Source: a plasmid. Taken from it: 64,000 nucleotides of DNA. The number at the start of each line of letters is the position of its first letter. The first letter of the stretch is position 1. The position numbers and the translations under genes are program-made. The notes under the pieces are model-generated. The model was not told the origin of the DNA. It saw only the letters and a list, made by a program, of their open reading frames with translations, and did no database searches. Of this stretch, positions 1,227-24,249 are shown one piece after another. The stretch lies in the sequence record NZ_CP106960.1, one strand, 5' to 3'.

Positions 1227-1238
1227 GCAGGAGCCCTT

Positions 1239-2441: not shown

Positions 2442-2983
2442 CGACAGACAGCACACCGGCACATAAAAAACGGCTATCCGGGCGCATTGCCTGGGGCGTG
2501 ATGAGCATTTTTCTGCCGGTGCAGGAGACCACGTGGTATCTGCGCTCCGCACGGCACATGACCGCCCGTAACCTGGCCCGTATGCGTCATGCTTATCCGG
2601 AACCCGCTGATAGCGGGGCCGCGCCACCGGTCTCGCCGGACTGGGAAAAGGCCGTGGCCGACTCAGGCTGTACGCCGGCGCAACTGGAGAAAAACTATCT
2701 CTCACTGCGCCGCCGCTGGCGTGTGCTTTTCTGGCTGATGGCCGTGCCGGTCCCCCTGTCGCTCCTGTTACCGGTGTTCAGCTCTGCAGGCATAACCGCG
2801 CACCAGGTCAGCACCATTCTGGTGCTGTTTGCCGGTGCTGGCGTGTCATGGTCGAGGGCACTCATTATCACCTACCGGCTGTGGCAGCTGCGAAGCCGCC
2901 GGGTGAGCCTTGCGGAGGGCGGAACCTTCCGGCATTTCCTGACGGAGACGCGGGCCGTCCGCAATGCCATTCGCGGAAGATAA
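2438..2983 (+). CDS. TraX-like membrane protein (181 aa)
   Basis: It is translationally coupled to the upstream gene (ATGA overlap), has hydrophobic helices, and fits by synteny. Confidence 0.4.
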   Translation: MTTDSTPAHKKRLSGRIAWGVMSIFLPVQETTWYLRSARHMTARNLARMRHAYPEPADSGAAPPVSPDWEKAVADSGCTPAQLEKNYLSLRRRWRVLFWLMAVPVPLSLLLPVFSSAGITAHQVSTILVLFAGAGVSWSRALIITYRLWQLRSRRVSLAEGGTFRHFLTETRAVRNAIRGR

Positions 2984-3046
2984 CCTGCCCTGCCCGTCAA
3001 TTTTTCTTTATGCCATTCCGGCATCCCGCATTTATCCGGAGCTACC

Positions 3047-5206
3047 GTGAAAAAATTCAATCGTGCGCTTTGCGCCGGCCTGCTTGTGCCTGTTCTGCCG
3101 GCCCGCGCAGGCACCTACGATGACATCGTGTCTGCCGCCACCAATGCACAGGACATCTCCCGCCAGGCACTGGTCACCATATTTGGTGACGTGGTGCTGA
3201 ACCCGATGTCAGCCGGCAATACCACGATGATCGGTAATCTTTTTGCCCTCTTTAACGGGATTATCGCCGTGCTAGCCGTGATTTGGTTCATCTTCATCGG
3301 TCTCAGGCACATCAATAAAACCGGGCACCAGGGCAAAGTCTTCAGCGGAGATCGTGACATCACCAGTACGCTCAGTACCGTGTCCGGTTTCTTTATGATC
3401 ATTCCGACAGCAAACGGCTGGAGCATGGCCCAGCTCATCATGCTGTGGGGCGCTTCCGTCATGGGAGTGGGCTCTGCGAACCTGATGGTAACGAAGGCGG
3501 CCAGCGATATTGCCAGCGGCTACTCGATGACCGTCCAGCCCACTCAGGCCTCCACCCGTACCTCCGCGCGTGGCATTTTTGAGATGCAGTTGTGTAAGCA
3601 TGCCATAAACATGGCGCTCGACGATTACAGCAGCACGGCCAGCTCCACCACGCCCAGAATGACGGAGGTATCAGGCTCAACAGGGGGCAATTACACGTAT
3701 CGTGTCACTAACGGCAGTGGTGTATGCGGCACGGCCAGCATTCCGGAACAGAAAACATCAAGCTCGTCGTCCAGCCTGGGCAGTTTCCTGAACCCCTTCA
3801 GCGACAGTGACACCCACGAAGTTGTCGCAGCCCAGCATAAGGCCATGGATGCGATGATCAAGGATATGGACGCGGCGGCCAGCGAGTTCCTGACAGGATT
3901 TATCAACAAGCGCGTCAATGGAAGCGGAACGATCCCGGATATTGAGACCCGTATTCAGCGGGCAGCCGGCACATACGAGCAGACGGTGCAGCGCGCCCTG
4001 CCGGCGCAGGGTGAACAGAACGGCATGCAGGACACGCTCAGGAATTACCTTGGTACATACGGCTGGGCCGCACTCGGAGCCTGGTACCAGACGTTTGCCA
4101 CGGCCAACCAGCGCCTGACGGAAGTGGCCAGCCGGGCACCGGCGACCAGCGGGATGTCATCGCTGGGTGAGATCGGTAGTGAGGATCTCTTTAACGCGCT
4201 GATGGGTGCCTACCGGGCACAGCTGCAAACTTCCAGTTACAGCCCACCGTTAGGAACAGTGATTAGCCAAAATGAGTTCGAGGCAGGAAATGGAAGCGAT
4301 ACTCAAAGCATTCTGATGAATTCAATTGCCCCTCAGTCTCAATGGCTTACAACAAAAATCGCGACAAGTTTCACTGGTACTGGAACAACCACGCAACAAG
4401 TTAATCCCCTGATAAAAATGAAAAATGTTGGAGACTATACCCTGATCGCTGCTGAGGGAACTCTGACATCATATACAGCTGCCAGAGTATTAGCGGCAAT
4501 GGGTGATGGTTCCCTGCTCGGTAAAGCGCTCGACCTTACAACCGGTGCAGTTAGTGGGATCAATAAGGGTCTGGATGCAATTTCGCCAGCTGTGTATTTC
4601 CTTCTGTTACTTATGTTCACCGCAGGGTTTACTCTTTCAATCTATCTACCGTTTATCCCGTTTATTTACTGGATGACGGGGATCGGTAACTGGATTGTTA
4701 GTGTTCTCGTTGGCTGCGCTGCAGGCCCCCTGTGGGGAGCTACTCATCTTGGTTCACAGCAAGATCGAGGTAGTCGCGCGGCATATGGCTACATTTATTT
4801 TATCGATACGATGATTCGCCCTACCTTGATGGTCTTTGGTTTTTTCTTTGCTTCGGTCGCTATTGTCGCTACTGGAACCATTCTGCATGCACTTTTTGGC
4901 GCTGCACTGGTCAATGTTCAGGCCAACTCTTTAACGGGGCTGTTTAGTCTGGCAGGCTTTTTAATGATATACGCGCGTATGTGCACAACGCTGGTATCGA
5001 GCATATTCGCATTACAAGCTTATTTACCAGATTACGTCATTTCATTCCTCGGTGGGCGAGACGCCGCAAATACTCTTGGCAGCATGTCTGGTTCAGTCAA
5101 AGATATGTTTGTGGGGGGTAGTAAGAACATCAGAAATACTCCTGGCGTAAATAGTAAATCTTTGAATGGACCTTCTGAAGCGAATAACGATGGAGTTAAA
5201 GGCTAA
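3047..5206 (+). CDS. TraY-like integral membrane transfer protein (719 aa, DotA-like)
   Basis: It has a signal peptide, multiple long hydrophobic segments and a Ser/Thr-rich central region. Size and position match TraY of IncI1. Confidence 0.5.
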   Translation: MKKFNRALCAGLLVPVLPARAGTYDDIVSAATNAQDISRQALVTIFGDVVLNPMSAGNTTMIGNLFALFNGIIAVLAVIWFIFIGLRHINKTGHQGKVFSGDRDITSTLSTVSGFFMIIPTANGWSMAQLIMLWGASVMGVGSANLMVTKAASDIASGYSMTVQPTQASTRTSARGIFEMQLCKHAINMALDDYSSTASSTTPRMTEVSGSTGGNYTYRVTNGSGVCGTASIPEQKTSSSSSSLGSFLNPFSDSDTHEVVAAQHKAMDAMIKDMDAAASEFLTGFINKRVNGSGTIPDIETRIQRAAGTYEQTVQRALPAQGEQNGMQDTLRNYLGTYGWAALGAWYQTFATANQRLTEVASRAPATSGMSSLGEIGSEDLFNALMGAYRAQLQTSSYSPPLGTVISQNEFEAGNGSDTQSILMNSIAPQSQWLTTKIATSFTGTGTTTQQVNPLIKMKNVGDYTLIAAEGTLTSYTAARVLAAMGDGSLLGKALDLTTGAVSGINKGLDAISPAVYFLLLLMFTAGFTLSIYLPFIPFIYWMTGIGNWIVSVLVGCAAGPLWGATHLGSQQDRGSRAAYGYIYFIDTMIRPTLMVFGFFFASVAIVATGTILHALFGAALVNVQANSLTGLFSLAGFLMIYARMCTTLVSSIFALQAYLPDYVISFLGGRDAANTLGSMSGSVKDMFVGGSKNIRNTPGVNSKSLNGPSEANNDGVKG

Positions 5207-8727: not shown

Positions 8728-11025
8728 ATGAATAACACGCCCGTAAACCAGGCAATGATGAAGCGCAGCGCCTGGCAGTCACCGCTACTGGAGATGCTGC
8801 GTGACCACCTACTGTATGCCGGTATCATGGCGGGCAGCCTGGTGGCGGGATTTATCTGGCCGCTGGCCATCCCGCTGTTGCTGTTTCTGGCCATCATCGC
8901 CAGCGTGAGCTTCAGCACCCACCGGTGGCGTATGCCGATGCGGATGCCCGTCCATCTGGACCGGGTGGATCCGTCGGAAGATCGCAAAACGCGTCGTAGC
9001 CTTTTCAGCGCATTTCCCACTCTGGTGCAATACGAGGCTATCCAGGAGCGAAAGGGTCGGGGCATTTTCTACCTGGGTTATCAGCGGATGCGCGATACCG
9101 GGCGCGAGCTGTGGCTCACCATAGATGACCTGACGCGCCATGTGATGTTCTTTGCCTCCACCGGTGGCGGAAAAACAGAGACTATCTATGCGTGGATGCT
9201 CAATTCCTTCTGCTGGGGACGCGGGTTTACCTTTGTTGACGGCAAGGCGCAGAACGATACGGCGCGCACCTGCTACTATCTGGCCCGCCGGTTCGGTCGC
9301 GAGGATGATGTAGAGTACATAAACTTCATGAACAGCGGCATGTCACGCAGTGAGATGATCCAGAACGGAGATAAAAGCCGACCTCAGTCACACCAGTGGA
9401 ATCCCTTCTGCTACAGCACTGAGGCTTTTGTTGCTGAAACAATGCAATCAATGTTGCCGACTAACGTACAGGGCGGTGAATGGCAGTCCCGCGCGATTGC
9501 AATGAACAAGGCACTGGTCTTTGGCACCAAATTTTATTGTGTCCGTGAAAACAAAAACATGTCACTGCAGCTGCTGCGCGAGTTTATGCCACTTGAGAAG
9601 CTGGCAGGGCTCTACTGCCGTGCCGTGGACGATCAGTGGCCTGAGGAAGCTGTCGCTCCGCTCTACAATTATCTGGTCGACGTCCCGGGCTTTGATATGT
9701 CTATGGTTCGCCAGCCCTCAGCCTGGACTGAAGAACCGCGTAAACAGCACAGCTACCTGACCGGCCAGTTCCTTGAAACCTTCAATACCTTTACCGAAAC
9801 GTTCGGGAACATCTTCGCTGAGGATGCCGGCGACATCGATATCCGCGACAGTATTCACAGCGATCGCATACTCCTGGTGTTGATTCCGGCCATGAACACG
9901 TCTCAGCACACAACATCCGCTCTTGGGAGAATGTTCGTAACCCAGCAGAGCATGATCCTGGCCCGCGACCTTGGACACAAGTTAGAGGGACTGGACTCCG
10001 AAGCACTTGAAATCACCAAATATAAAGGGGCTTTCCCTTACATGAACTACCTCGATGAGGTCGGTGCCTACTACACCGAGCGGATCGCGGTACAGGCCAC
10101 CCAGGTGCGTTCCCTGGACTTTTCTATCATCATGATGAGCCAGGACCAAGAGCGTATTGAAAGCCAGACCTCGGCCACCAATGTTGCCACCCTGATGCAG
10201 AACGCCGGAACCAAAGTCGCCGGTAAAATCGTCAGTGACGACAAGACGGCAAAAACAATCAGTAATGCCGCCGGTCAGGAAGCCAGGGCTAACATGGTGA
10301 GTCTGCAGCGTCAGGACGGCCTTATAGGAACCTCCTGGATCGATGGCAATCAGATCAACATTCAGATGGAGAACAAAATCAACGTTCAGGATCTGATTAC
10401 GCTGCAGCCCGGGGAGAACTACACTGTGTTTCAGGGCGACCCGGTACCGGGTGCCTCCTTCTATATCGAGCCAGAGGACAAAACCTGCGGTGAGCCGCTG
10501 ATTATTAACCGCTACATCACCATCAACCCTCCGGGACTGAAACAGCTGCGAAAACTGGTACCGCGTACAGCACAGCGCCGCCTGCCGACACCGGAGAACG
10601 TGAGCAAGATTATTGGGGTACTGACAGCCAAACCGTCCCGTCGCAAAAAGAAGTCAGGAGGAGAGCCGTGGAAAGTGATCGACACCTTCCAGCAGCGGCT
10701 GGCCAACCGCCAGGAAGCACACAACCTGATGACGGAATATGACATGGACCATAGCGGGCGAGAAAAAAGTCTGTGGGAGGAAGCACTGGAAGTTATTAGG
10801 AGCACAACCATGGCAGAACGTACCATTCGATACATTACGCTTAACCGCCCGGAACCAGAGCCTTCCGAGCCAGGTGACGAAGAAAACTCTCAGCCTCAAG
10901 AGGTCATTCTGAAAAATCTTACTCTCCCGGCTCCTGTTATCCGCCCGGCCCGGACAGGTAACGAACCACCTCAACAAATCTCCCCCCACATACCGCTCAG
11001 GCCAGAAATGGAGTGGCCTGAATGA
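8728..11025 (+). CDS. trbC: TrbC-like coupling/NTPase protein (765 aa; DotL/VirD4-like)
   Basis: It has N-terminal TM helices and a Walker A motif (FFASTGGGKTE). Size matches R64 TrbC (763 aa). It is the last gene before the convergent region. Confidence 0.55.
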   Translation: MNNTPVNQAMMKRSAWQSPLLEMLRDHLLYAGIMAGSLVAGFIWPLAIPLLLFLAIIASVSFSTHRWRMPMRMPVHLDRVDPSEDRKTRRSLFSAFPTLVQYEAIQERKGRGIFYLGYQRMRDTGRELWLTIDDLTRHVMFFASTGGGKTETIYAWMLNSFCWGRGFTFVDGKAQNDTARTCYYLARRFGREDDVEYINFMNSGMSRSEMIQNGDKSRPQSHQWNPFCYSTEAFVAETMQSMLPTNVQGGEWQSRAIAMNKALVFGTKFYCVRENKNMSLQLLREFMPLEKLAGLYCRAVDDQWPEEAVAPLYNYLVDVPGFDMSMVRQPSAWTEEPRKQHSYLTGQFLETFNTFTETFGNIFAEDAGDIDIRDSIHSDRILLVLIPAMNTSQHTTSALGRMFVTQQSMILARDLGHKLEGLDSEALEITKYKGAFPYMNYLDEVGAYYTERIAVQATQVRSLDFSIIMMSQDQERIESQTSATNVATLMQNAGTKVAGKIVSDDKTAKTISNAAGQEARANMVSLQRQDGLIGTSWIDGNQINIQMENKINVQDLITLQPGENYTVFQGDPVPGASFYIEPEDKTCGEPLIINRYITINPPGLKQLRKLVPRTAQRRLPTPENVSKIIGVLTAKPSRRKKKSGGEPWKVIDTFQQRLANRQEAHNLMTEYDMDHSGREKSLWEEALEVIRSTTMAERTIRYITLNRPEPEPSEPGDEENSQPQEVILKNLTLPAPVIRPARTGNEPPQQISPHIPLRPEMEWPE

Positions 11026-11053
11026 TATTTAGAGTATGATTGTTAAGTGTATA

Positions 11054-11079
11054 AAGGCCGCGAAAGCGGCCTTTTTTGT
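11054..11079 (+). terminator. Rho-independent terminator downstream of trbC
   Basis: The stem ggccgcgaaagcggcc is followed by TTTTTT. Confidence 0.6.
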
Positions 11080-11141
11080 CTGTGATTTGTTCTAAATAGA
11101 ACGTCAAAACGGCAGGCTTTGACGTGATTTCACGCAAGACG

Positions 11142-13031
11142 TTAATCCGCTTGCGGCCACATTTTAAGTGCAGCATTCCCTAGTAACGCACCACGTGCGA
11201 GAATTTGTTGCTCATCCCATCGGTCTATAGCGGTCAGAGGCACATTTAAACGCAGGCTGGTATGGGCAAGAAAAGCATCACGTTTTTTTAGAAAGTCTGA
11301 GTGTTGGAGGGAACGATTCACGCTGAGGTTAAGTAACGTCAGATTTCCCAAAGTTGCAATTACTTGCTGCCGTTTCCACACCAGTTCCTGAGCAGGCGTC
11401 AGCTCCGCACCTGCAAGAACTATCTGAGTAACTGCTGAAGCTTCTGTAATCGTAACAGATTGTCCGTTTTCGAGAGGCCAGTGGGAGAACCACTGCTGAG
11501 GCATGAGGTGATCGATATCGAGACTGGAAAGTTTAGGGACATCCGGTTCCTCTGTTTTAACCTGACGGCGGAGTTCCCCTTCAAGCTCTGTGAGCATCAT
11601 ACGCATCTTCGGCGTATCGAGCCTGCCGGGATAAAGCTGGGCGGTAGTACAGGCATTAAGGAATTCTGAGTCAGTCGGCCATCGAGAAGCCTCGCCATTC
11701 AGATTCTTTAGACTGTAGCGTAACTCAACACTGGAAACTTCAGTTTTAGCCAGGTGCCGTAAGACATTCATGAAAACGTTATTGTAGTTCTTGGGTGTAA
11801 GACCACATACGGCTCTTCGCACCACATATGAGACTAGATCATTAAACATGATTGTCTTTTCAGTGTCGGAGATGTCAGTGACCGAAATCAGAAGTGCGAG
11901 AGGGTGAATAGTCGTCACGTCATAGGCTGCAATACGACGGCCAAAGCGTGCGATAGGAGACGTACCACTATCACCGATCAGTTCTTTATATTGATGGGCA
12001 TAGCGATTGAGAAGTGCGACCTGCTGATCGGCCCGGTGCGCAGGCATATCCTTAGTGACGTAGTCCCGGAACTCGTTGTAAAGACGTGATAAATCCACTT
12101 CACTACGTTTTTCAGCTTGTAGCGTGGCGTGAATTAACCATTCCAGTCGGGGTTTATAAATTCGGCCACGTCGTTGATTTTCCGTCCAGTAGGGATCTTC
12201 AAATGATTTCCAGTCATTCTCATACAACATCCCAGCATCAATACCGTCACGCTCAGCGCGCATAAAGATGTAATTGCGAATGAGATCCGTCGCATGAAGT
12301 TCTGCCCCCCGACCATTTAACGTCTCAAAAATGATTTGAGCATCATCCTCTGCCTCTAAGGTTATGCTGATCATTTTTAGGTCAGTCAGTACTGCGTTAA
12401 TCAAAGCCTCTGCATTTGAGGCTAAAGAGTGCTCTTCTGCATTGATGAACTGAATAAAAGCATCACTAAAGAACCATAACGCTTCCAGTGAGGGTGGGTG
12501 ATTGAAGTGCTTACGCAGGGTGCCATGTTGAGTGAAGCTATCCGGATAGACATCGCGCAGATCATCTGCGGCGTCAACGTTGAGACTTTTAATAAAATCT
12601 TTTTGATCCCGGAATGTTGGCCAAAGTTTAAAACGTTCGACCTCCTCATTACGCATTGTTTCTTCGTTTGTGTTGCGTAAACAAGGCAATACGATCTTCT
12701 CCAGTCCGGAAAGGCCCGTTGCCCGAAGTGCAAGTCGGATGGAAGCAAGAATATACTGAAGTGTAGTCAGTCGCTGTTGACCATCAATGATGTGTAAAGT
12801 ATCAACCCCCAACAAGCTATCTCTGGATTGAGGTTCAAGCACGACGGCCCCAAGAAAATGAGGCGTTGGTTTTGTACCTGATAATCTGCTTTGCGCCTTA
12901 TCGAAAATATCTTCTAATAGTGCGGACCACTGGTCTCTTTGTGTCCATACATAGGCTCGTTGATAGAAGGGAACACAATATTGTCGGCGATCCTGGAATA
13001 TCTGATTAACTGTAAGCGGCTCTGATTTCAT
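11142..13031 (-). CDS. GmrSD-family nuclease-like protein (DUF262 N-terminal ParB/Srx-like NTPase domain plus DUF1524 His-Me finger nuclease domain), 629 aa
   Basis: The N-terminus carries DUF262 signatures (VPFYQRAYVW, IIDGQQRLTTL). The C-terminus carries the DUF1524 signature (DIDHLMPQQW, GNLTLLNLSVN). It is a single gene between trbC and nikB. Confidence 0.7.
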   Translation of the reverse strand: MKSEPLTVNQIFQDRRQYCVPFYQRAYVWTQRDQWSALLEDIFDKAQSRLSGTKPTPHFLGAVVLEPQSRDSLLGVDTLHIIDGQQRLTTLQYILASIRLALRATGLSGLEKIVLPCLRNTNEETMRNEEVERFKLWPTFRDQKDFIKSLNVDAADDLRDVYPDSFTQHGTLRKHFNHPPSLEALWFFSDAFIQFINAEEHSLASNAEALINAVLTDLKMISITLEAEDDAQIIFETLNGRGAELHATDLIRNYIFMRAERDGIDAGMLYENDWKSFEDPYWTENQRRGRIYKPRLEWLIHATLQAEKRSEVDLSRLYNEFRDYVTKDMPAHRADQQVALLNRYAHQYKELIGDSGTSPIARFGRRIAAYDVTTIHPLALLISVTDISDTEKTIMFNDLVSYVVRRAVCGLTPKNYNNVFMNVLRHLAKTEVSSVELRYSLKNLNGEASRWPTDSEFLNACTTAQLYPGRLDTPKMRMMLTELEGELRRQVKTEEPDVPKLSSLDIDHLMPQQWFSHWPLENGQSVTITEASAVTQIVLAGAELTPAQELVWKRQQVIATLGNLTLLNLSVNRSLQHSDFLKKRDAFLAHTSLRLNVPLTAIDRWDEQQILARGALLGNAALKMWPQAD

Positions 13032-13117
13032 GGGGTTCCTTTAATAATACTAAGTGATTTGAGAGCCTGAGAATCGGAGTCACCATCTTCAGGCAACCAG
13101 TTCCTTTCAACCCGGTC

Positions 13118-15817
13118 CTAACGAGGAGACGGTGGCTTCCAAGTATTCTGGTATGCAACATTATTATCTAGGGTGTGTATGCCCTGATTGACCATTTCAT
13201 CAAAGCGGCGCTCGCTCTCAACACGAAGCTGGTCTACGTCAGGACGGGAGATCTGATATTCACCCTCATCGCGATGATTGACGTTGTGCCATGCCACCAT
13301 TTTCGCAAATGCTGCATTGAACTGGTCATTGTTCCCTTCTGGTTCCATCGCAACGGTCGGGGACCGGCTGAAAAGAACCGGTGCAACTTTTACCATGTCA
13401 TGCTTAAGCACATCGTAATCCCCGTTGTTCTGGAAAATAACCCGATCGCCATAGTCAGTACAGATGTGTCGTCCCGTTTCCGGGTCCCTGAACTGAACAC
13501 GCCCGTTTTTCTTCAGCGACGCCCGCAGGCCAGGAACGCCGGAATAAACAGGCGTACCACCAGGCTCACAAATCACCACACACCGGTTATCCGTTGTGGC
13601 TTTCACAGCATTGCTGCGGCGATCCCGGTAATCCCATCCTCTCAGCTGCGATATCGCAGCCTTGTCACCTTTCAGCGCTTCAACTTCCACCCACTGCCGG
13701 TAAGACGGCGGATACCATTTCCCCTGCCCGATAAGTTCCAGACGTTCCGCTTTCACACTCTCTTTCAGCGCAATGAGTGCCTGCATGCGCTGCAGCTCCG
13801 CAATGTGATAATGCAGCTTCCGCACGAGCGGATCGCGTTGCTGCGCGCGGATACGTGCCTTACGCAGCCTGCACTCGTCATGTATCGCCTGCCAGCGTTC
13901 CCGGTTGCGTAAGTCCGGACGCTGCCAGTTCGCGCGCCAGGCTGAATAACGGGCCTTCAGATCGTCGCGCGCAGCAGCGCGTGCTTCCCGGCGCTGGCGA
14001 CGCAGTTCAGGGTCACGTTTCATGCCCGGGATATCGCGGTCGCTGACGGCAAGCTCAGGGTTATAACGGCTCACCGGCGCAACGCGTTCAAAGATATCTG
14101 ACGGCACACGAACAAACGCACCGGCATGCGGCTCTGCACGAGCAAGCGTCAGATCCGGATGGACATGGCTTGCTTTAACCGGCGTCTGGTCGTGGTTATA
14201 AGCATCCATCACCATCAGGCCCTGTTGCTCACGCATCAGCAGTAATCCCTGACGCGCCAGCAGTTCATGACCACGCTCCCAGGTGAATTCCCCGCTGCTG
14301 ATTAGCGCCTCTAAATCCTGACGGCAGTGTGACACCGCATAGCCCCACAGGCTTTCTTTGTCGGAGAAAATCTCACGCTTAAGCGCGCCCTGCGGACCCG
14401 AACCGGTGCGCAGTTTTGCCCATTCCCGATCGCTGACCGGGCGGGCTTCCAGTCCACCGCCGGCAAAACGTTCCGCCGGAGGTACCTGCCGGAAGATATC
14501 GTGAGGAACAGGCTGCCACCCTCCTTCATAGCTGTTCATGACTGCTTTCGTCAGCGCCGGCCAGACGCGTTCAGCGCGTACTGGCGTGCGCGTCTGATCG
14601 TAACCGTCACAGATAACCAGGCGGTCATGCTGTTCTTTCAGGTACAGACCGGAATGTGCCAGAAGTGCATGAACCGCCTGCATGGTGCGTTGCGCCGGGT
14701 TCTGATCGAGTGCGATAAGTGGCGCGCGCAGACGGGAGACAGCGTACTCATTCAGCGTCTCTTTTTCGGACATGCGTTCAGGACGGGACGGCATAGTAAC
14801 GGTATCCGGATCGTAGCGACCCACATCTGGTACCTGCGTGAAAATGTCCTGTGCGGGCGGCGTGAACTCGCCAAGTTTGCGGATAAGTTTTTCCGTGTTC
14901 CACGAATGACCAAACGCCGAAAGCGTCACGCCCGGACGTTCGCGATCCCAGCCGTCCTTCACTTTCAGCTCGCCGTTATCACTGGCGATAAACAGCCCTG
15001 CTTGCGCAAAACGCTGATGCAGTGAAGGCCAGTCTGTCACCGGTGCTTCGCGAAGACCCGCGACAGCGGTATCGGCAATGTACTCTTTCAGGCTCGGCTT
15101 GCGGCCGTGCTGCCAGGCGCTCTGACGGTCACGTTCGACTGACGTGCGGCGCACAATACGGTTATCCGGCGCAATGACATAGCAGCCATTGTCCGGTGAA
15201 AAGCCATGTTTAAGCTCCAGCTCGCGGCAGGCTTTGCTCAGTTTTTCCTGACTGTATGGCAGTCGGTTCAGGTAGCCGGTTTGAGGGTGAACCCGGTTTA
15301 CGGCAACGTGAACATGCAGGTTATCGGTATCGGTGTGAACAGCCGATACGAACTGGTGATCGCTCAGTCCGAGGCGGGAAAGTGAGTGGCGAACGGAGTC
15401 ATAAATCTGTTCCGGGCGCGGGCTTTCGTGTGACTGCCAGCTAAGAATGTAGTGGAACACCGGGTCACTTTTGTTATGGGCGAACTTCGCTTTGCGTGCC
15501 GCGAACTCCATCTCTTCAGCTGCACTTTCAATGGATGTGCAGTTGTGAAAACAGGTCACACCATAAAAATTCACCCACTCTCCGCCGTCCGGCATCACAT
15601 CCACCAGGGAGATAAATGACTCATCGCGCAGCTTTGTTGCGTAGTCAACAAGGCGGGAAAACCGGCTGCTGTGTGGCATGTCCGCTTTCGTACCGGATGC
15701 CCTGACGGCTTCCATCAGATCATCATCCTGCGGTTCATCACGCACGGAAACGTACGACACCAGGTCCCCGAAGGAGGACTTGCCGTCTTTTCGTTTCTTC
15801 GGAATGACCGGGATCAT
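13118..15817 (-). CDS. nikB: NikB relaxase (MobP family), 899 aa
   Basis: It is immediately downstream of nikA and oriT, 899 aa as in R64 NikB, and shows a relaxase N-terminal domain pattern. Confidence 0.8.
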   Translation of the reverse strand: MIPVIPKKRKDGKSSFGDLVSYVSVRDEPQDDDLMEAVRASGTKADMPHSSRFSRLVDYATKLRDESFISLVDVMPDGGEWVNFYGVTCFHNCTSIESAAEEMEFAARKAKFAHNKSDPVFHYILSWQSHESPRPEQIYDSVRHSLSRLGLSDHQFVSAVHTDTDNLHVHVAVNRVHPQTGYLNRLPYSQEKLSKACRELELKHGFSPDNGCYVIAPDNRIVRRTSVERDRQSAWQHGRKPSLKEYIADTAVAGLREAPVTDWPSLHQRFAQAGLFIASDNGELKVKDGWDRERPGVTLSAFGHSWNTEKLIRKLGEFTPPAQDIFTQVPDVGRYDPDTVTMPSRPERMSEKETLNEYAVSRLRAPLIALDQNPAQRTMQAVHALLAHSGLYLKEQHDRLVICDGYDQTRTPVRAERVWPALTKAVMNSYEGGWQPVPHDIFRQVPPAERFAGGGLEARPVSDREWAKLRTGSGPQGALKREIFSDKESLWGYAVSHCRQDLEALISSGEFTWERGHELLARQGLLLMREQQGLMVMDAYNHDQTPVKASHVHPDLTLARAEPHAGAFVRVPSDIFERVAPVSRYNPELAVSDRDIPGMKRDPELRRQRREARAAARDDLKARYSAWRANWQRPDLRNRERWQAIHDECRLRKARIRAQQRDPLVRKLHYHIAELQRMQALIALKESVKAERLELIGQGKWYPPSYRQWVEVEALKGDKAAISQLRGWDYRDRRSNAVKATTDNRCVVICEPGGTPVYSGVPGLRASLKKNGRVQFRDPETGRHICTDYGDRVIFQNNGDYDVLKHDMVKVAPVLFSRSPTVAMEPEGNNDQFNAAFAKMVAWHNVNHRDEGEYQISRPDVDQLRVESERRFDEMVNQGIHTLDNNVAYQNTWKPPSPR

Positions 15818-16300: not shown

Positions 16301-16416
16301 TTCGCCTAGCGTCGATTTGACGGCATGGGCAGTGCGGAGCACTGCCACTTTCTTTCAGCTAATGGTATGATTTGAATGTAAATTTGCGCATCAGTATGTG
16401 AAAGGAAAAAAACGAT

Positions 16417-16740
16417 ATGGCAGATAAGAAATGGTTCACAAGTGAAGACGTGGAACTGGCAAAAACGGCGCTGGATGAGCTGCCTGATTTGACCGAAAAA
16501 CGGCTGACGAAATCCGACGTTCTGGACAAGCTGAAAGACCAGATAATTTTGCTTTCAGGCAGCAAAGGTTATTCTGTCGAGGATATCCGTTCGGCTCTGG
16601 ACGGTGTGGGGATCCAGACCAGTGTTAAAGCCATACGCGAAATTTTAAGTGCGCAAAAGAAACAAACAGTAGCCACGGGGGGTTCCCGTCGCAGGACCAC
16701 GAAAAATCCCGCTCAGGCTCCGGTGACAGAAGGCAAGTAA
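16417..16740 (+). CDS. Hypothetical protein, first leading-region gene (107 aa)
   Basis: The ORF has an AGGA-type RBS. It is acidic and helical, with no recognisable domain. Confidence 0.4.
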   Translation: MADKKWFTSEDVELAKTALDELPDLTEKRLTKSDVLDKLKDQIILLSGSKGYSVEDIRSALDGVGIQTSVKAIREILSAQKKQTVATGGSRRRTTKNPAQAPVTEGK

Positions 16741-16901
16741 GCCATCAGGGAGAATTATCTTGTGGACGGAAGGGATTCAGTCACCACGGAAAGTGGTGGG
16801 ATAATTCCGGCAGATGGAGTTCCGGCACTGTCAGGTTCAGTACCTGTTTGTGCCGACAGGAAGGAAATAAAATGGCGGAGATGATCCCCGCCATTCATCA
16901 A

Positions 16902-17735
16902 TCAGGATTTCAGGGCTTTCATCATTTCAGCCATTCCCCATAACGCACGGTTCAGCTTCACATCCCCATCAATACCCGTCACGGCGCGCGTACGCTGGCG
17001 ACGCCCCTGCGCAGATTTCCCCAGCAACCCGCCTTTCGTCATATTCTCCTGAACGCGTTGATACGTCGTCCACAAATCATCTGCTTTGTCCTCATGACGA
17101 CGGACGGTCAGCACATCAGAAGTTGCCAGCGGAATATGCTTTCCTTCCGCGTTTTCATCATAGCGCCACCCTAACGCGGTCTGCGCAAAAATCTCCTGCT
17201 CATCACGCGACAGCACGGTATCTTTCATAATTTCGCGTGACTCTGTGATGCTGTCGAAAACATCCAGAACCTCGTAAGCGCCTTCAATGACCTGACCGAC
17301 AACGTCACCTTTGTGCGGGACACGGATTTCCCCGAACGTCTGGCCGCATACCATCCCGTTAGTACAGACGAAACGAAACATCCCCGGGATCATCTGATAG
17401 CTGCTGCTGCCATCGTGGCTGTTGAGCAGAATGATTTCCGGCACCTCTGCGCCTGCGATCTGCCCGGCACGGCGCAGACGCATCATGTGTTTGGTGTGAC
17501 CGCGCTTCCCTTCATCACGCGTGCGGGTCTGGCAGGCAAAGAACGGTAGGAAACCTTCTTCACGCAGCTTATCCAGAACGGTGATGGTTGGAATGTAGGT
17601 GTAACGTTCGCTACGTGAATCATGCTTGTCCTCTGAAAAAATGCTCGGGACAACGTGCATTAGCTCGTCATTGGTCAGTGCGCGCTCTTTACGGATGACG
17701 TTCATGGATGAAAAACGGGATGCTAAACGGGTCAT
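16902..17735 (-). CDS. DUF932-family (YafZ/YfjQ-like) leading-region protein
   Basis: It is about 280 aa with a conserved pattern typical of DUF932 proteins in plasmid leading regions and ICEs. The start is chosen at MTRLAS; the ORF extends to 17801. Confidence 0.5.
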   Translation of the reverse strand: MTRLASRFSSMNVIRKERALTNDELMHVVPSIFSEDKHDSRSERYTYIPTITVLDKLREEGFLPFFACQTRTRDEGKRGHTKHMMRLRRAGQIAGAEVPEIILLNSHDGSSSYQMIPGMFRFVCTNGMVCGQTFGEIRVPHKGDVVGQVIEGAYEVLDVFDSITESREIMKDTVLSRDEQEIFAQTALGWRYDENAEGKHIPLATSDVLTVRRHEDKADDLWTTYQRVQENMTKGGLLGKSAQGRRQRTRAVTGIDGDVKLNRALWGMAEMMKALKS

Positions 17736-18136
17736 ATCAATCTCCTCACATGTCACAAAAAAATCATTTCTGCCGTCGCCTTTTTGATGATGTATCACCA
17801 TCGCGGGAGGCCGTTTCCGTGATAAAGCGATCGCCCTGACCGTTCAGGAGACGATGCAAGGAGGCAATGCGAGGCCGCAGCGCAAGCGACCAGAGGGAGT
17901 GCGAACGGGTGAGAAGTGCGTACTTGCATCGTTTCCGGGTCAGGGCAGAGTCTTTCACGGGAAGAGGCAGCACGCGGTGAGCACCGGCGTCAAAAGGATG
18001 ATGCGGAAATTTCCCGGCGGGCGCCGCCCGACCCGGAACCGCCTGGCGGGTCCGGGTCGGGCGGCGCTGCCGGAACGGCAGCTGCAAGCCCGGGCGCCAG
18101 TGGTGAAGCATTACGCCCGGACAGACCTGTCTGCAA

Positions 18137-18709
18137 TTACCAGTCAAAAACCGGTGCGTTTTCCACTTCATCCCCCAGACCGGAGAAATGGATCATGCTG
18201 ATATCCGCCCGGCGAATGGCGCTGAAAATTAAAGCCCGCGCTTCGCGGGAAAGGCCCAGTTTTTTCAGGCGGAGTAAGGGTCTGGCGACAGCTTCCAGGC
18301 GAATGAGGTATCCCACATCCGTATCCATAATCCACCACCCTTCATGCTTCGTACGGCTCAAACCCTGCAACAAAAGATTGTCAGCTTCTGTCAGATGGTT
18401 AGCGCAGCATTCCATTACCGGGCGCAACATCATACCCGGCAGGGTGAGGGAATTACCCCAGCCCAGTGAATCAGTGATGTCATTCCATGACCATTTTTCA
18501 GTATCAGGTACGGGCAGCGCCAGTAACTGAAAAGGCACGCCCATTTTCTCCGCCATAAGCAGCCCTGTGCCGATCACGGCATCATCACGTTCCCCGATAT
18601 CGCAGCTGGCAATACGTTCGCCATCGAGAAAAATAGCCTCATCACCGTTATCAAGCTGAATACCTGTCACTCCGCGCGGAGCGTTCTGCAAGTAGCGTTT
18701 ACGCAACAT
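18137..18709 (-). CDS. Hypothetical protein (190 aa)
   Basis: A clean ORF in the leading region with no recognised domain. Confidence 0.4.
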   Translation of the reverse strand: MLRKRYLQNAPRGVTGIQLDNGDEAIFLDGERIASCDIGERDDAVIGTGLLMAEKMGVPFQLLALPVPDTEKWSWNDITDSLGWGNSLTLPGMMLRPVMECCANHLTEADNLLLQGLSRTKHEGWWIMDTDVGYLIRLEAVARPLLRLKKLGLSREARALIFSAIRRADISMIHFSGLGDEVENAPVFDW

Positions 18710-18761
18710 TTGTTTATCCCGTCAGAAGTTCAGAAGCCGCCCCTTTACGGGGCGGCGGTTA

Positions 18762-19001
18762 TCAGGCGCAGGCTCTGGATAATTCCAGTGACCGCAGAAG
18801 ATGTCCCAGTTCTGTGCAACTCATGGCCGGAATACGCACCGGCTGATGACGGCGCTCTGCTCGTGCAACAATCTTGCCCCATACTTTAGGACGGCGGGCG
18901 ATCGCCTCCGCAGGCACGGTTTCGTGGCGCTTGCGCGGATGACTGTTACGCCGGTTATTTACAAAATACTCGCGACATGCGAGGATGAATTGGTCTTTCA
19001 T
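18762..19001 (-). CDS. Small hypothetical protein (79 aa), paralog of 20904-21206
   Basis: It shares the C-terminal motif RIPAM-x5-GHxLRxLEL with the ORF at 20904-21206. Confidence 0.4.
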   Translation of the reverse strand: MKDQFILACREYFVNNRRNSHPRKRHETVPAEAIARRPKVWGKIVARAERRHQPVRIPAMSCTELGHLLRSLELSRACA

Positions 19002-19751
19002 AAAAAGTCTCCAGTACAGATTTTTTGTGAGTCCGGTCTGCTCGAACAGCCCGGAGTGAAGAAGCAGAGTTCGCGCTCTGCTTTTTTATTGCCTGAAATC
19101 CGGCAATATCCTGCGCGTCGTCTGACGCAAACCTCCCTAGTCGTCCGGCCTCTTCTGCCGTCGTCCTTTTCGGTTTTTTTGCAATGAGTGAAACGCCCTC
19201 ATTACGCTTATGCCCTGACGGGGCGACGACGAAAAGCAGGGGTGGAGGCCGGATTATTTGGAGCCTGCGAGAAAAAATCTGGCCGGAAAGCGACAGCGGC
19301 CCTTGCTGCACGGAGACGCTCCTTCAGCGTGCATAAGTAATGAGAGGCTTTCACGGCAACGACGGACAGGACGGCAGAAGACGCCGGAAACCCGGCGTTC
19401 CCTGGCGACCGCCGGGGCGGTCAGTGAAAGCGGCGCTGCCGGAACGGCAGCTGCAAGCGCAAGGGGTTCAGGCATCGCTTGCTATCCGAATGGACGGAGA
19501 CGCGAGCGGCTCCGCGTAGCGCGGTGGACACACGTCCACCACGCGAAGTGCAGGCGACGACCCGGCTACGACGGGGAGCCGAAGGTGCCCGCAGTGTAGT
19601 TCGCAAACAGAAAAACTCGTGCAAAACCATCACTGAAAGTCGTCGAAATATAAAATTAAAAAAGTGCAGATATTGCACTTTTATGGATTTATTTTTTGCA
19701 TAATTTCGCACTAAAATAAGTGCAGTTTTTGCAACTTTGGTGGGTTTCCAG

Positions 19752-20015
19752 ATGACGGGTTACGAGCTGCGTTTGTGGCGAAAAGGCATGGGCTGGAGCA
19801 GCGATAAAGCGGCGGAAGAGCTTGGCGTAAGCCTGCGCACCTGGAAAGAGTATGAACAGGCGGCAGAAGTAAAACGGGTCGTAGAACTTGCAACGGTTTC
19901 ACTGTCCCTCGCTGCGATCTTCCCCACGTGTAGGCTCCGAAAAACAACTAAAGAGCGTGTGCTTAACATGGTTCTTGCACTCCTGAACTCAGCGGGCCTG
20001 AAGGGGCCGCGCTGA
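19752..20015 (+). CDS. XRE-family helix-turn-helix transcriptional regulator (87 aa)
   Basis: It carries an HTH_XRE signature (YELRLWRKGMGWSSDKAAEELGVSLRTWKEYE). An AT-rich upstream region holds TGCAC-containing palindromes. Confidence 0.5.
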   Translation: MTGYELRLWRKGMGWSSDKAAEELGVSLRTWKEYEQAAEVKRVVELATVSLSLAAIFPTCRLRKTTKERVLNMVLALLNSAGLKGPR

Positions 20016-20034
20016 GCGCCGCCCCTGCCCTTCT

Positions 20035-20865
20035 TCAGGCGGCAACGCCTGCGTTGCGCATAAAGTCCATCATGGCCTTGATCCTGCGCTGGCTGTTAAG
20101 CCTTTCTTCGAAGTTATTCAGGTAATAAGCAGGCGTATATCGCACCAGTTTAAACTGCTTCGTCAGGGTGTTGCCTGTAACCACCTCGGCAGCGATTCCC
20201 AGCAACGAAAGCTGTATAAACGCCATATCAGCCGCAATCGGATCGATATCGATACAGCTGGCAAACAGGTGAGCCGATGGATTGACGTCAGCCTCAAGCA
20301 GGCATTCAGCATAGGCAATAATCATCCCGGCAGAGCCGCAGGCCGGATCGCTTATTGTGGCGATACCCTCCCGTGCTATTTTTTCCTGAATACCGGGGAT
20401 CAGCATCCGAGCCATCATCGACTGGACGTAATACGGCGTAAAGTATTGCCCCATCCCGCCCGATCCCAGCTCCAGCTCCATGAAAATCGAGCCAATAAAA
20501 TCATGAAATTTTGCATCCAGAGAGTAATACATCAGGGTGAACAGCTCCTGAAGGTTGCGGATATCGGCTGCATCATACCGGGTCAGGATCTTACGACAGT
20601 ACTCCGCTTTCTCCGGTGTTTTAAGACCCACGATGTCCACTTCCCTGGCGGCCAGCCTGATAAAGTCGCTGAAAACATCCCAGCGGTGAAGGTGTCGGGC
20701 GGTCTGATTGAACAGACGAATAAACTGCTTTCGCGCCGTGTCGATAGACATCAGGCGCGGCGCGGCCGGAGGCTGAGGAACGACCGGCGCCGGCTGCACG
20801 GCAGTGCGGACGGCGTCGCTGTGTTTTACCTGGTCAAAGAAGTCTGCAAAGCTCATCTGGGACAC
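20035..20865 (-). CDS. HsdM-like N6-adenine DNA methyltransferase homolog, short (276 aa) with a degenerate catalytic motif
   Basis: GQYFTP and motif I (DPACGSAGM) are intact, as is the HsdM-like region IDIDPIAADMAFIQLSLLG...GNTL. Motif IV reads TPAY instead of NPPF/Y, and the protein ends soon after. Confidence 0.55.
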   Translation of the reverse strand: MSQMSFADFFDQVKHSDAVRTAVQPAPVVPQPPAAPRLMSIDTARKQFIRLFNQTARHLHRWDVFSDFIRLAAREVDIVGLKTPEKAEYCRKILTRYDAADIRNLQELFTLMYYSLDAKFHDFIGSIFMELELGSGGMGQYFTPYYVQSMMARMLIPGIQEKIAREGIATISDPACGSAGMIIAYAECLLEADVNPSAHLFASCIDIDPIAADMAFIQLSLLGIAAEVVTGNTLTKQFKLVRYTPAYYLNNFEERLNSQRRIKAMMDFMRNAGVAA

Positions 20866-20903
20866 GTTTTTCTCCTGCCGCCCCGTCAGGGGCGGCGTTT
20901 TTA

Positions 20904-21206
20904 TCAGTTAAAGGCGCGTTTCAGTTCGAGCGTGCGCAGGACGTGACCCCAGTCGCTTCCGCACATGGCGGGAATGCGAATGCGGCGTTTCTTTTTAAGG
21001 CAGTGCGCGATATGACGACCGAACGCCCGCAGGGTCGGATCGACCTCGGCACTCGGAATGTCTTCCCGGTTGTGGCGGGTTTGTTTGCGTGTAACCGACG
21101 CCGGGGACTGGACAGACAGCGCGGAGGATGTAACAATCTGGACTTCACTGAATTGCATGGTTTGTTCCTTTTGGTGATGGCCGGATTTTCGTTTCGAGGC
21201 GTACAA
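20904..21206 (-). CDS. Small hypothetical protein, paralog of 18762-19001
   Basis: Shares the C-terminal motif RIPAMCGSDWGHVLRTLEL. The start may be at the internal MQFSEV. Confidence 0.4.
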   Translation of the reverse strand: MYASKRKSGHHQKEQTMQFSEVQIVTSSALSVQSPASVTRKQTRHNREDIPSAEVDPTLRAFGRHIAHCLKKKRRIRIPAMCGSDWGHVLRTLELKRAFN

Positions 21207-21242
21207 TCCGGCGTGGATGAAGCAGGCGTAAGCCTGCTTTTT

Positions 21243-21602
21243 TCATTTCTGGCTCAGGCTCTCAGGGCAGAACACCGCTTTCACTTTCGCCACGATATCG
21301 GCGTGGTTCAGGTTGCTGAAGTCACGCAGACGGAAATAGCGCTTACCAAAACGCGCAAAAATGTCCGTGACGTTCCCGCAAATCATTTCTGCCATCATGA
21401 AGGTTTCCGTGTCCTGGGCGGTGTCACAGCTCCAGTTGATCATTGGTGGGCGCAGACCCGCCGCGTCGTGGAACTTGTTCACGTCGATCTCGACAGGTGC
21501 GAGAAGCGCCTTCGTCTCACGGCTGCGCCAGTACGCATGCTCAGCTTCGGCGGTGGCGTTCATATCCAGAGAGGCGAATGAATCAGTTGTCTGTAAATGC
21601 AT
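21243..21602 (-). CDS. Hypothetical leading-region protein (119 aa)
   Basis: The ORF lies immediately downstream (minus sense) of repeat B1. Confidence 0.45.
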   Translation of the reverse strand: MHLQTTDSFASLDMNATAEAEHAYWRSRETKALLAPVEIDVNKFHDAAGLRPPMINWSCDTAQDTETFMMAEMICGNVTDIFARFGKRYFRLRDFSNLNHADIVAKVKAVFCPESLSQK

Positions 21603-21627
21603 GGTTTGTCTCCTTTTCAGTTTTCAC

Positions 21628-24211: not shown

Positions 24212-24249
24212 GTTCTCCTTATTGCCGCCCCGAAGGGCGGCACTCCTTA

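Follow-up and report, generated by a model that had tools for sequence, protein, structure and literature searches.

What does a stand-alone gene of 629 codons do between the relaxase gene nikB and trbC of a conjugative plasmid, and does it belong to the transfer backbone or to later cargo? The gene, here called gmrSD, lies in a 64,000-nucleotide stretch of the plasmid record NZ_CP106960.1 (hereafter the window; Table 1); the conjugative plasmid carries mer, tet(A), aph(3')-Ia, and a class 1 integron. An exact-sequence look-up found its product in NCBI as WP_231070075.1 / WJT05530.1, under the deposited name 'DUF262 domain-containing protein (plasmid) [Leclercia adecarboxylata]'. This annotation goes no further than the domain; orthology to a prototype enzyme supplies a concrete, testable function. 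The coordinates agree with an earlier, sequence-only reading that placed a stand-alone gene between convergent trbC and nikB, with these two genes as its neighbors. nikB matches the Pfam families Relaxase and TraI_middle (run on the identical gene in L006), and its product shares 62% amino acid identity with IncI1 NikB; the trbC product shares 66% with IncI1 TrbC.

Table 1. Features of the nikB–trbC region (positions are those of the window; a point marks features given without strand)
Feature	Position	Strand	Description	Source
gmrSD ORF	11142..13031	-	629 aa, ATG start; predicted single-chain Type IV (modification-dependent) restriction endonuclease	ORF list
N-terminal DUF262 / GmrS domain	12264..13010	-	predicted ParB/Srx-like NTPase; residues 8-256; YQR = residues 23-25	
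C-terminal DUF1524 / GmrD domain	11181..11681	-	predicted His-Me finger (HNH) nuclease; residues 451-617	
DGQQR motif	12771..12785	-	residues 83-87; putative NTP gamma-phosphate and hydrolysis motif, by analogy	
Catalytic residues	11466..11513	-	D507-H508 (11508-11513), N522 (11466-11468); numbering as Eco94GmrSD	
nikB	13118..15817	-	MOBP relaxase, 899 aa; upstream of gmrSD, same strand	ORF list
Spacer, nikB stop to gmrSD start	13032..13117	-	86 nt	sequence read, promoter/terminator scan
Terminator-like hairpin of gmrSD	11101..11125	-	ACGTCAAAGCCTGCCGTTTTGACGT then T-rich tail; 17 nt past stop codon	
GC-rich hairpin	11053..11074	.	AAAGGCCGCGAAAGCGGCCTTT; left cargo junction	terminator scan, four-way alignment
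Segment differing from p707804-1FII	11078..13217	.	cargo module and last ~100 nt of nikB	BLAST breakpoints
trbC	8728..11025	+	765 aa; convergent with gmrSD and nikB	ORF; annotated trbC in relatives

Profile searches support the claim that a single ORF of 629 aa holds both DUF262 and DUF1524 halves. PF03235 (GmrSD_N) matches the N-terminal domain with E 8.5e-35 (121 bits vs. a cutoff of 33), and PF07510 (GmrSD_C) matches the C-terminal domain with E 8.7e-20 (71.5 bits vs. a cutoff of 23); at E-values this low, a chance match is ruled out. The PADLOC model mREase_IV (PDLC03655) matches the protein from end to end (1–629 of 629; 1133 bits), and a search of NCBIfam with the protein matched no family. 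The AlphaFold model has a mean pLDDT of 82, and its fold in the N-terminal domain matches the corresponding domains of DndI and SspE.

Every motif named from the letters alone (YQR, DGQQR, DxxH, and GNLTLL..N) is found in the translation. YQR stands in the context VPFYQRAYVW and DGQQR in IIDGQQRLTT (HIIDGQQRLTTL at residues 80–91); the GmrD domain reads LDIDHLMPQ (containing D507-H508), LGNLTLLNLSVN, FLKKR, and a W..W tail motif. GmrSD proteins have been defined by an N-terminal (I/V)(I/V)DGQQRLTT motif and by the C-terminal motifs (I/L/V)(E/D)H(I/L/V)xPQ, L(G/A)NLxLLxxxN, and NxxFxxKK (Machnicka 2015, PMC4619093); the third of these DUF1524 motifs reads HSDFLKKR here, with H replacing the N of NxxFxxKK. 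Across an alignment of 25 homologs, D83, G84, Q85, and Q86 are invariant and R87 is nearly invariant (at least 90%), and D507 and H508 are invariant in homolog alignment A3. The role of DGQQR has been demonstrated for Q101/R102 of BrxU (PMC8565348) and for R87 of DndI (PMC11662687), and the substitutions D507A, H508A, and N522A each abolish cleavage by Eco94GmrSD (PMC4437046).

Comparison with Eco94GmrSD, whose sequence was taken from the supplement of PMC4437046, yields 474 identical residues of 629 (75.4%) between two proteins of 629 aa, with zero gaps; 472 of 629 residues are identical to UTI89GmrSD. DGQQR (83–87), D507, H508, and N522 occupy the same positions in the plasmid protein and in Eco94GmrSD / EcoCT596 GmrSD. 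By sequence, then, gmrSD is an ortholog of the biochemically characterized prototype, Eco94GmrSD / CT596 GmrSD, beyond mere membership in its family, and its product is probably a functional Type IV restriction endonuclease of the single-chain GmrSD kind, orthologous to this E. coli CT596/Eco94 enzyme. The substrates of prototype GmrSD are 5hmC and glc-5hmC DNA (PMC4437046). Because the orthology extends without gaps at 75% identity, phage DNA containing hydroxymethylcytosine (hmC) or glucosyl-hydroxymethylcytosine (glc-hmC) is the likely substrate of the plasmid enzyme as well; by analogy, it most likely restricts such DNA in an NTP-dependent and modification-dependent manner. Eco94GmrSD is likewise a stand-alone gene without a methylase partner, carried on a mobile element; however, it is prophage-borne beside tail-fiber genes (PMC4437046), whereas the plasmid copy is flanked by nikB and trbC of a conjugative plasmid.

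The plasmid copy differs from Eco94GmrSD by 155 substitutions, and identity drops to 55–68% in residues 251–400, residues 501–550, and the C-terminal tail. Three of the substitutions (C517H, N528I, N535T) fall at residues whose mutation gave partial activity in Eco94GmrSD, and E273D and K280P fall in the ExEx(4)ExK motif that was marked as important in the study of that enzyme. The UTI89 (UT) enzyme, which shares its length of 629 aa and its motifs with the plasmid copy, is 93% identical to Eco94GmrSD, yet has another phage range in vivo and is inactive in vitro (PMC4437046); phage range and IPI* immunity thus differ between the UT and CT/Eco94 enzymes despite 93% identity, so that specificity at 75% identity is unreadable from sequence. 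Substrate range and inhibitor sensitivity of the plasmid copy may therefore depart from those of the prototype.

That gmrSD encodes an active GmrSD-clade enzyme whose substrate has shifted (to another hypermodified base, or to a broader set of 5mC, hmC, and glc-hmC as in BrxU) is unlikely, though the divergent regions would accommodate this reading, as would the finding that close GmrSD variants neither share one phage range nor respond alike to the internal-protein inhibitors of T4 (PMC4437046, PMC12373910). BrxU, from the Escherichia fergusonii plasmid pEFER (PMC8565348), is also a plasmid-borne DUF262-DUF1524 Type IV enzyme; it is NTP-dependent, shares the DGQQR motif and the DH..N nuclease with plasmid gmrSD, and also cuts 5mC DNA (PMC8565348). 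A system directed at unmodified DNA is complemented by BrxU, namely BREX, and another would be complemented by gmrSD, namely an EcoRII-type restriction–modification (R-M) system. However, BrxU is embedded in its BREX operon, whereas gmrSD is flanked by no BREX genes, and BrxU (7P9K) has no sequence match to the gmrSD protein by phmmer or hmmsearch at E ≤ 1; Foldseek returned a weak match to the gmrSD model (E 0.03). The catalytic and NTPase motifs equal those of the prototype, and the plasmid encodes its own m5C methylase: the window contains a single complete R-M system, a self-contained EcoRII-type methylase and endonuclease pair at 32269–34992, 19 kb from gmrSD. If both genes are expressed, m5C at CCWGG must be tolerated. 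Because this methylase sits on the same plasmid, gmrSD presumably tolerates EcoRII-type m5C sites (CCWGG being assigned from family membership). The prototype did not cut Dcm-methylated lambda DNA in Mg2+ buffer; in Mn2+ buffer this DNA only smeared, an effect that the authors attributed to relaxed (star) activity (PMC4437046 and its supplement).

Among solved structures, DndI (9JFL) and SspE (6JIV, 7DRS), rather than BrxU, come nearest to the gmrSD protein in both sequence and fold. DndI 9JFL gives a profile E-value of 2.2e-15 against the gmrSD protein and a Foldseek E-value of 1.6e-10; phmmer gave E 2.4e-6 within the N-terminal domain only, and identity in the structural alignment with DndI is ~14%. 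DndI and SspE share with gmrSD a two-domain architecture, a DGQQR NTPase, and an HNH-type nickase or nuclease; they differ in sensing phosphorothioates, in being partnered with dnd or ssp modification genes, and in targeting unmarked rather than modified DNA. Could gmrSD likewise encode an effector that recognizes host DNA by its phosphorothioate marks and introduces nicks into foreign DNA lacking them? The P-x-Y-Q patch, which is the phosphorothioate sensor in DndI, is present as VPFYQR; however, the PxYQR motif is general across DUF262 proteins, ~14% identity to DndI compares with 75% to GmrSD, and the homologs stand alone in varied contexts. Neither dnd nor ssp genes were seen in the window by a Pfam survey of part of the large ORFs together with the annotations of matching plasmids. 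DndI is toxic without phosphorothioate marks (PMC11662687), an ill fit for a lone gene on a broad-host plasmid. Such an effector can be given almost no credence. Membership in a DndI-like clade, considered when a single-sequence search of solved structures had missed BrxU, was dropped on the gap-free 75% identity to Eco94GmrSD.

The nikB–trbC junction was compared among related plasmids. p707804-1FII, a 98% identical Leclercia plasmid with the closest backbone, has two other genes in the slot, and homology to it stops at 11077; the last ~100 nt of nikB, which also differ, encode a hypervariable NikB tail (NikB tail comparison). The slot is empty in pE61_003 (a 93% relative; nikB–trbC gap 72 nt) and in IncI1 pRK1 (36 nt), in keeping with the sequence-only reading, which had trbC and nikB as close neighbors in R64-type backbones, and the IncI1 junction is uninterrupted in 798 of 1044 matching E. 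coli records. Since neither IncI1 nor either of the two closest backbones has gmrSD, the idea of a ubiquitous backbone gene was rejected. The impression, first gained by eye, that the gene is AT-richer than its flanks is borne out by composition (GC 0.467 and GC3 0.435, vs. 0.566 and 0.599 for nikB and 0.547 and 0.655 for trbC). gmrSD is acquired cargo, not a conserved backbone gene. The insertion is evident against the empty slots; the flanks of the insert hold two short, chance-level direct repeats only and zero inverted repeats, with no transposon or integron signature.

An Ewingella chromosome carries a copy that is 89% identical at the nucleotide level, both flanks included; on the left side, homology to this locus stops at 11053. 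The terminator-like hairpin past the gmrSD stop codon is conserved in the Ewingella copy and arrived together with gmrSD. The GC-rich hairpin at the left cargo junction is the trbC terminator in relatives with an empty slot or other cargo, and it recurs 3' of gmrSD in Ewingella.

In related plasmids, the slot holds SoFic, a YafO-like toxin, a PBECR2 nuclease, a DUF2971 protein (DUF2971/PDC-S31-like gene), or bacteriocin-export genes; a scan of genome contigs with NikB gave six loci, among which the content varies, a sample too small for frequencies. The junction looks like a general cargo slot, and the data hold no functional tie between gmrSD and the relaxosome. This bears on whether gmrSD might be an exclusion nuclease directed at competitor plasmids or foreign-methylated DNA, a role that would account for its nearness to the relaxosome genes. 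gmrSD does adjoin nikB inside the transfer region, and PFLU4242 of Pseudomonas fluorescens SBW25, likened to gmrSD by architecture rather than by sequence, is a stand-alone DUF262-DUF1524 protein that interacts genetically with plasmids, causing plasmid fitness costs and SOS induction (PMC8544851). However, PFLU4242 is chromosomal and harms resident plasmids, whereas gmrSD is plasmid cargo; unrelated cargo in the slots of sister plasmids indicates that position reflects a permissive site and not a relaxosome function, and the contexts of gmrSD homologs are prophages and chromosomal islands rather than transfer regions. hmC and glc-hmC, the substrates of the prototype, are not known to occur in plasmid DNA. 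Given these substrates, the Dcm+ lambda DNA left uncut in Mg2+ buffer, and the plasmid's own m5C methylase, a role against competing plasmids, as the sequence-only reading had proposed, is highly improbable.

The 86-nt spacer contains a Shine–Dalgarno sequence that is a good match (AAAGGAACCCC-ATG) and a single weak promoter-like site (TTCTCA-18-TATTAT, 13073–13044). This site was rejected as the gene's own promoter: it lies so near the ATG that almost no leader is left, and the promoter scan of the region found 4 sites vs. 4.2 expected from shuffles, which is chance level. No terminator-like hairpin was found in the spacer by the terminator scan, making read-through from nikAB possible.

A silent or decaying passenger without current function for the plasmid would suit the want of a convincing promoter and the early end of donor-like homology upstream, which reaches 48 nt before the ATG by BLAST (13079), with weaker alignable similarity to Ewingella to ~85 nt. 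Against this stand the Shine–Dalgarno sequence, the terminator-free path from nikB, an intact frame of 629 codons with all catalytic residues present, and the record of selection. Comparison with the Ewingella and Yersinia copies gives gmrSD dN/dS values of 0.107 and 0.057, respectively (0.06–0.11 overall); the gene is under purifying selection. The identical protein is kept on at least 21 contigs (31 index blocks) from independent samples, and nikB, the gene, and trbC are arranged in this order in all six displayed loci with the identical protein, human-gut metagenomes among them. That gmrSD is such a passenger is extremely improbable.

Beyond these plasmids, the Yersinia homolog adjoins a type I R-M system in an integrase island, and the E. 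coli homolog adjoins prophage tail-fiber genes. A search of the phage collection by tblastn gave no match at E ≤ 1e-20, which indicates that no deposited phage genome carries a close copy, although the copies of E. coli are located within prophage regions. PLSDB contains a copy of the prototype clade (at least 60% identity) in only 2 of 72,556 records, neither a typical conjugative plasmid; among catalogued plasmids, GmrSD of this clade is all but missing.

From prototype GmrSD and BrxU, we infer a mechanism in which the N-terminal DUF262 domain would bind and hydrolyze NTP or dNTP via DGQQR, thereby licensing the C-terminal His-Me finger nuclease (D507-H508-N522) for DNA cleavage. Cleavage would be limited to DNA with hypermodified cytosine (5-hydroxymethylcytosine or glucosyl-hmC), the marks of T-even-type phages; as these would be absent from host and plasmid DNA, a partner methylase would be unnecessary. 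gmrSD came as a self-contained module of ~2 kb, comprising a ribosome-binding site, the ORF, and its own terminator. It occupies the short gap where the nikAB and trbABC transfer operons converge, a place that can take up cargo while the backbone genes stay unbroken. Expression is probably at least partly by nikAB read-through. Whichever host receives the plasmid would gain protection from T4-like phages, and gmrSD, acting on hypermodified DNA, would complement the EcoRII-type system of the plasmid, whose target is unmodified DNA.

gmrSD is largely an ordinary phage-defense cargo gene in an unusual place, and current understanding is not overturned. The cargo genes of the slot are mostly co-oriented with nikB, so that they could be expressed by read-through of the relaxase operon. 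It is a tentative, rather doubtful proposal that I-complex-type conjugative plasmids share a conserved hotspot for cargo at the convergent nikB/trbC junction, which would preferentially take up single-gene defense or toxin modules. If this is true, host immunity would be tied to transfer-gene expression, and layered restriction, EcoRII-type against unmodified and GmrSD against hypermodified DNA, would travel with multidrug resistance. The variable slot offers a small, tractable case of cargo gain at an operon tail without mobile-element scars, and the natural 75% variant should be useful for work on the arms race between GmrSD and T4 internal proteins. A resistance plasmid with predicted immunity to T4-like phages is relevant to phage therapy and to the persistence of resistance plasmids under phage pressure.

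The 629-codon gmrSD gene opens with an ATG in the ORF list, and the ORF coordinates agree with its earlier placement between trbC and nikB. Both halves of the GmrSD architecture proposed in the sequence-only reading were recovered by Pfam profiles, PF03235 (GmrSD_N) at residues 8–256 (E 8.5e-35) and PF07510 (GmrSD_C) at residues 451–617 (E 8.7e-20), each well over the gathering score. PADLOC mREase_IV (PDLC03655; profile length 629) covers residues 1–629 at 1133 bits; NCBIfam, searched with the same protein, returned no model. The YQR, DGQQR, DxxH, and GNLTLL..N-type motifs cited from the translation were all found (VPFYQRAYVW, HIIDGQQRLTTL, LDIDHLMPQ, and LGNLTLLNLSVN), and the gene is indeed AT-richer (GC 0.467, GC3 0.435) than nikB (0.566/0.599) and trbC (0.547/0.655). 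The initial observation was thus confirmed throughout.

Homology searches place the protein in a large family whose length is kept at ~630 aa. The nearest cluster representative is from Ewingella americana (92% identical), with homologs at 75–80% in Salmonella, Yersinia, Kosakonia, Serratia, Klebsiella, and E. coli; an exact match is already deposited at NCBI (WP_231070075.1 / WJT05530.1). Reference sequences for Eco94GmrSD, CT596 GmrSD, and UTI89 GmrSD were taken from supplementary Figure S1 of PMC4437046. In an ungapped residue-by-residue comparison, the window protein is identical to Eco94GmrSD, a 629-aa enzyme with catalytic residues D507-H508-N522 (He et al. 2015, PMC4437046), at 474/629 positions (75.4%), and to the UTI89 enzyme at 472/629. 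D83-G-Q-Q-R87, D505, and the catalytic D507, H508, and N522 carry the same numbering in both the window protein and the prototype. In Eco94GmrSD, D507A, H508A, and N522A abolish cleavage, while C517A, N528A, and N535A merely lower it (PMC4437046); the window protein has H, I, and T at the last three positions, which are non-essential. This gap-free identity and shared catalytic numbering establish orthology between the window gene and the founding GmrSD enzyme, a closer tie than possession of the same two domains. A homolog at ~72% nucleotide identity occurs in 304 of 5426 complete E. coli genomes, chromosomal in every case; as the E. coli copy L002 matches Eco94GmrSD at 625/629 residues, this homolog represents the prototype clade.

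An AlphaFold2 model of the protein (alignment of 25 homologs; mean pLDDT 82, pTM 0.77) gave significant Foldseek matches in the PDB to DUF262–DUF1524 proteins only: DndI (9JFL, E 1.6e-10) and SspE (7DRR, 7DRS, and 6JIV, E 1e-8 to 6e-8). The SspE C-terminal-domain entry 7DRI scored E 0.05, and the match to BrxU (7P9K) was weak (E 0.03). PDB sequence searches ranked DndI first (phmmer 2.4e-6, profile 2.2e-15) and SspE next; BrxU was absent from both at E ≤ 1, and the prototype GmrSD clade has no solved structure. DndI and SspE are phosphorothioate sensors that work with dnd or ssp genes (PMC11662687), and their resemblance raises phosphorothioate sensing as a role for the window protein. This is unlikely: identity to DndI is ~14%, as against 75% to GmrSD, and neither a partial Pfam survey of the window's large ORFs nor the annotation of matching plasmids showed any dnd or ssp genes in the window. 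The likeness therefore reflects an architecture in common, and not a function.

Comparison with related backbones identifies gmrSD as an insertion between trbC and nikB. Plasmid p707804-1FII (NZ_MH909330.1, Leclercia adecarboxylata) is 98.3% identical over 91% of the window's first 25 kb, but its homology ends at 11077 and restarts at 13218; pE61_003 (NZ_CP042496.1), 92.8% identical to the same 25 kb, has an empty slot of 72 nt between the nikB and trbC stops. That the two genes are close neighbours in such backbones, as stated in the sequence-only reading, holds: the slot measures 36 nt in IncI1 pRK1 and 220 nt in another I-complex plasmid, and the IncI1 junction is uninterrupted in 798 of 1044 matching E. 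coli records. With the slot empty or otherwise filled in relatives, gmrSD is cargo.

At the nucleotide level, the insert is closest to a chromosomal locus of Ewingella americana (L012); the stretch of 89.3% identity, window 13079-11053, takes in 48 nt 5′ of the ATG, the ORF, and two hairpins. The first (11125-11101) is terminator-like and gmrSD's own; the second (11053-11074; AAAGGCCGCGAAAGCGGCCTTT; GGCCGC-TTTC-GCGGCC) is the trbC terminator in empty-slot and other-cargo plasmids too, and has a counterpart 3′ of the chromosomal Ewingella gmrSD (L012 ~9955-9980). It may be a recombination joint or merely a common terminator. A repeat search found no direct or inverted repeats flanking the insert. 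At the NikB C-terminus (13118-13217), the last ~25 residues are hypervariable among relaxases otherwise 85–96% identical, invariably ending W-x-P-P-S/T-P-R/L; the homology break against the 98% backbone falls inside this tail.

The slot appears, in a small sample of plasmids, to be a general, recurrent cargo site at the operon tails, its genes mostly co-oriented with nikB (features below). The Citrobacter SoFic matches PADLOC at 364 bits and Pfam Fic and Fic_N.

Coordinates of features in the window and in the nikB–trbC slots of comparison loci
Feature	Coordinates	Strand	Remarks
trbC	8728-11025	+	neighbour of gmrSD on one side
gmrSD	11142-13031	-	629 aa
nikB	13118-15817	-	other neighbour; same direction as gmrSD
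DUF932	16902-17801
DUF5983	18137-18709
short N6-methylase-like protein	20035-20865
PsiA	23055-23786
ParB-HTH protein	24250-26265		671 aa
ArdA-domain protein	27915-28739
multidrug-resistance region	~31900-49300 and 51245-58279
C5-cytosine methylase	32269-33744	+	491 aa; Pfam 1.2e-78; PADLOC MTase_II 778 bits
EcoRII endonuclease	33778-34992	-	404 aa; EcoRII-N + EcoRII-C; PADLOC REase_II 875 bits
resolvase	35232-35801		in mer/tet(A)/aph(3')-Ia block
pentapeptide-repeat (Qnr-like) protein	51245-52036
pterin-binding sul-type enzyme	54408-55334
AadA-type (aadA)	55752-56597
class 1 integron integrase	57266-58279
UmuC/ImpB-family translesion polymerase	61704-62975		right end of window
ParM-type partition ATPase	63373-63966		right end of window
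p707804-1FII slot	L001 6524-8056		two unrelated hypothetical genes, 77 and 257 aa
Enterobacter cloacae slot	L020 11695-12449		89-aa secreted protein
Citrobacter slot	L021/L022 11698-14224		SoFic + 264-aa protein + 89-aa protein
C. pasteurii slot	L023 11695-12968		protein with YafO-like toxin domain
Leclercia / Escherichia slot	L024, L025 (L024 11701-12670)		PBECR2 nuclease-like protein; trbC truncated
IncI1 pHN257-F slot	L026 4119-4937		DUF2971 protein; PADLOC PDC-S31 matches weak
IncI1 p2RM8082 slot	L027 ~51-5000		ABC transporter / HlyD / CPBP cluster, bacteriocin-export-like

Fic or SoFic-like genes also lie near gmrSD homologs in Ewingella (L012 5660-6736) and Yersinia (L018 398-1015), and SoFic fills the slot itself in Citrobacter plasmids (L021 11796-12947); this recurrence may mean that single-gene defence cargo is drawn from a common pool. 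In Yersinia enterocolitica, the homolog (80% identical) adjoins a complete type I R-M system (hsdR, hsdM, hsdS; L018/L019 1412-7321) on an island that also holds AlpA, integrase, and RadC, a typical defence-island setting.

At least 21 contigs (31 index blocks) encode the identical protein; all six loci shown, human-gut metagenomes among them, have the nikB–gene–trbC order. A silent passenger gene is an unlikely reading, as the frame is intact and dN/dS (0.107 against the Ewingella copy, 0.057 against the Yersinia copy) indicates purifying selection. The start codon lies 86 nt past the nikB stop, in a spacer with a good Shine-Dalgarno sequence. A scan found no terminator-like hairpin between the genes; the spacer's single promoter-like site (TTCTCA-18-TATTAT, 13073-13044, ending 12 nt 5′ of the ATG) comes from a region where such sites match shuffle expectation, and similarity to the Ewingella locus extends 48 nt upstream by BLAST, weaker but alignable to ~85 nt. 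Read-through from nikAB is therefore a more likely source of transcription than an own promoter.

Eco94GmrSD cuts glc-5hmC and 5hmC DNA with NTP stimulation and restricts T4 lacking IPI >10^6-fold (PMC4437046); in BrxU, the DH..N domain cleaves only after the DGQQR domain has bound and hydrolysed NTP (PMC8565348). By orthology, the N-terminal domain of the plasmid enzyme would hydrolyse NTP first, and the His-Me finger would then cleave hmC-type hypermodified phage DNA. Such bases are absent from host and plasmid DNA, so gmrSD would need no protective methylase on reaching a new host, which fits its lone carriage on a conjugative plasmid. The main alternative is a Type IV enzyme whose substrate has shifted. 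UTI89 GmrSD, at 93% identity to the prototype, nonetheless has a different phage range and was inactive in vitro (PMC4437046), which places a real caveat on the specificity of the window enzyme, and T4 internal proteins match GmrSD variants one-to-one (PMC12373910). A plasmid exclusion or competition nuclease, also raised in the sequence-only reading, is unlikely: the substrate speaks against it, as do the unrelated genes that fill this slot elsewhere and the occurrence of homologs in prophages and chromosomal islands.

An EcoRII-type methylase and endonuclease lie convergently at the resistance block's left-hand edge, so the plasmid carries both classical and modification-dependent restriction. 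If the two systems are expressed together, m5C at the methylase's sites, predicted as CCWGG from EcoRII family membership, has to be tolerated by GmrSD. Such tolerance agrees with the prototype leaving Dcm+ lambda DNA uncut in Mg2+ buffer (PMC4437046), an in silico answer to the earlier question of Dcm methylation. The pairing resembles BREX with BrxU on pEFER (PMC8565348): one system acts on unmodified DNA and the other on hypermodified DNA escaping the first.

Many enterobacterial plasmids (E. coli, Klebsiella) match the mer, tet(A), and aph(3')-Ia block at 99–100% identity; the block also includes an EAL-domain protein and a DDE transposase, and a class 1 integron-like set follows. Leading-region-style genes occupy 16400-30000, across oriT from nikA; if orientation is as in R64, few genes would enter the recipient after gmrSD.

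Both the GmrSD family and its mechanism are already known, as is its occurrence on mobile elements, and a full-length defence-database model already covers the window protein. Copies at ≥60% identity occur in only 2 of 72,556 PLSDB records (one of 1.3 Mb that resembles a chromosome, the other of 19 kb from E. albertii), and none was found among deposited phage genomes (phage collection, tblastn, E ≤ 1e-20). The novelty is modest and lies in the location of a prototype-clade GmrSD, carried by a conjugative plasmid with multidrug resistance in a recurrent nikB/trbC cargo slot.
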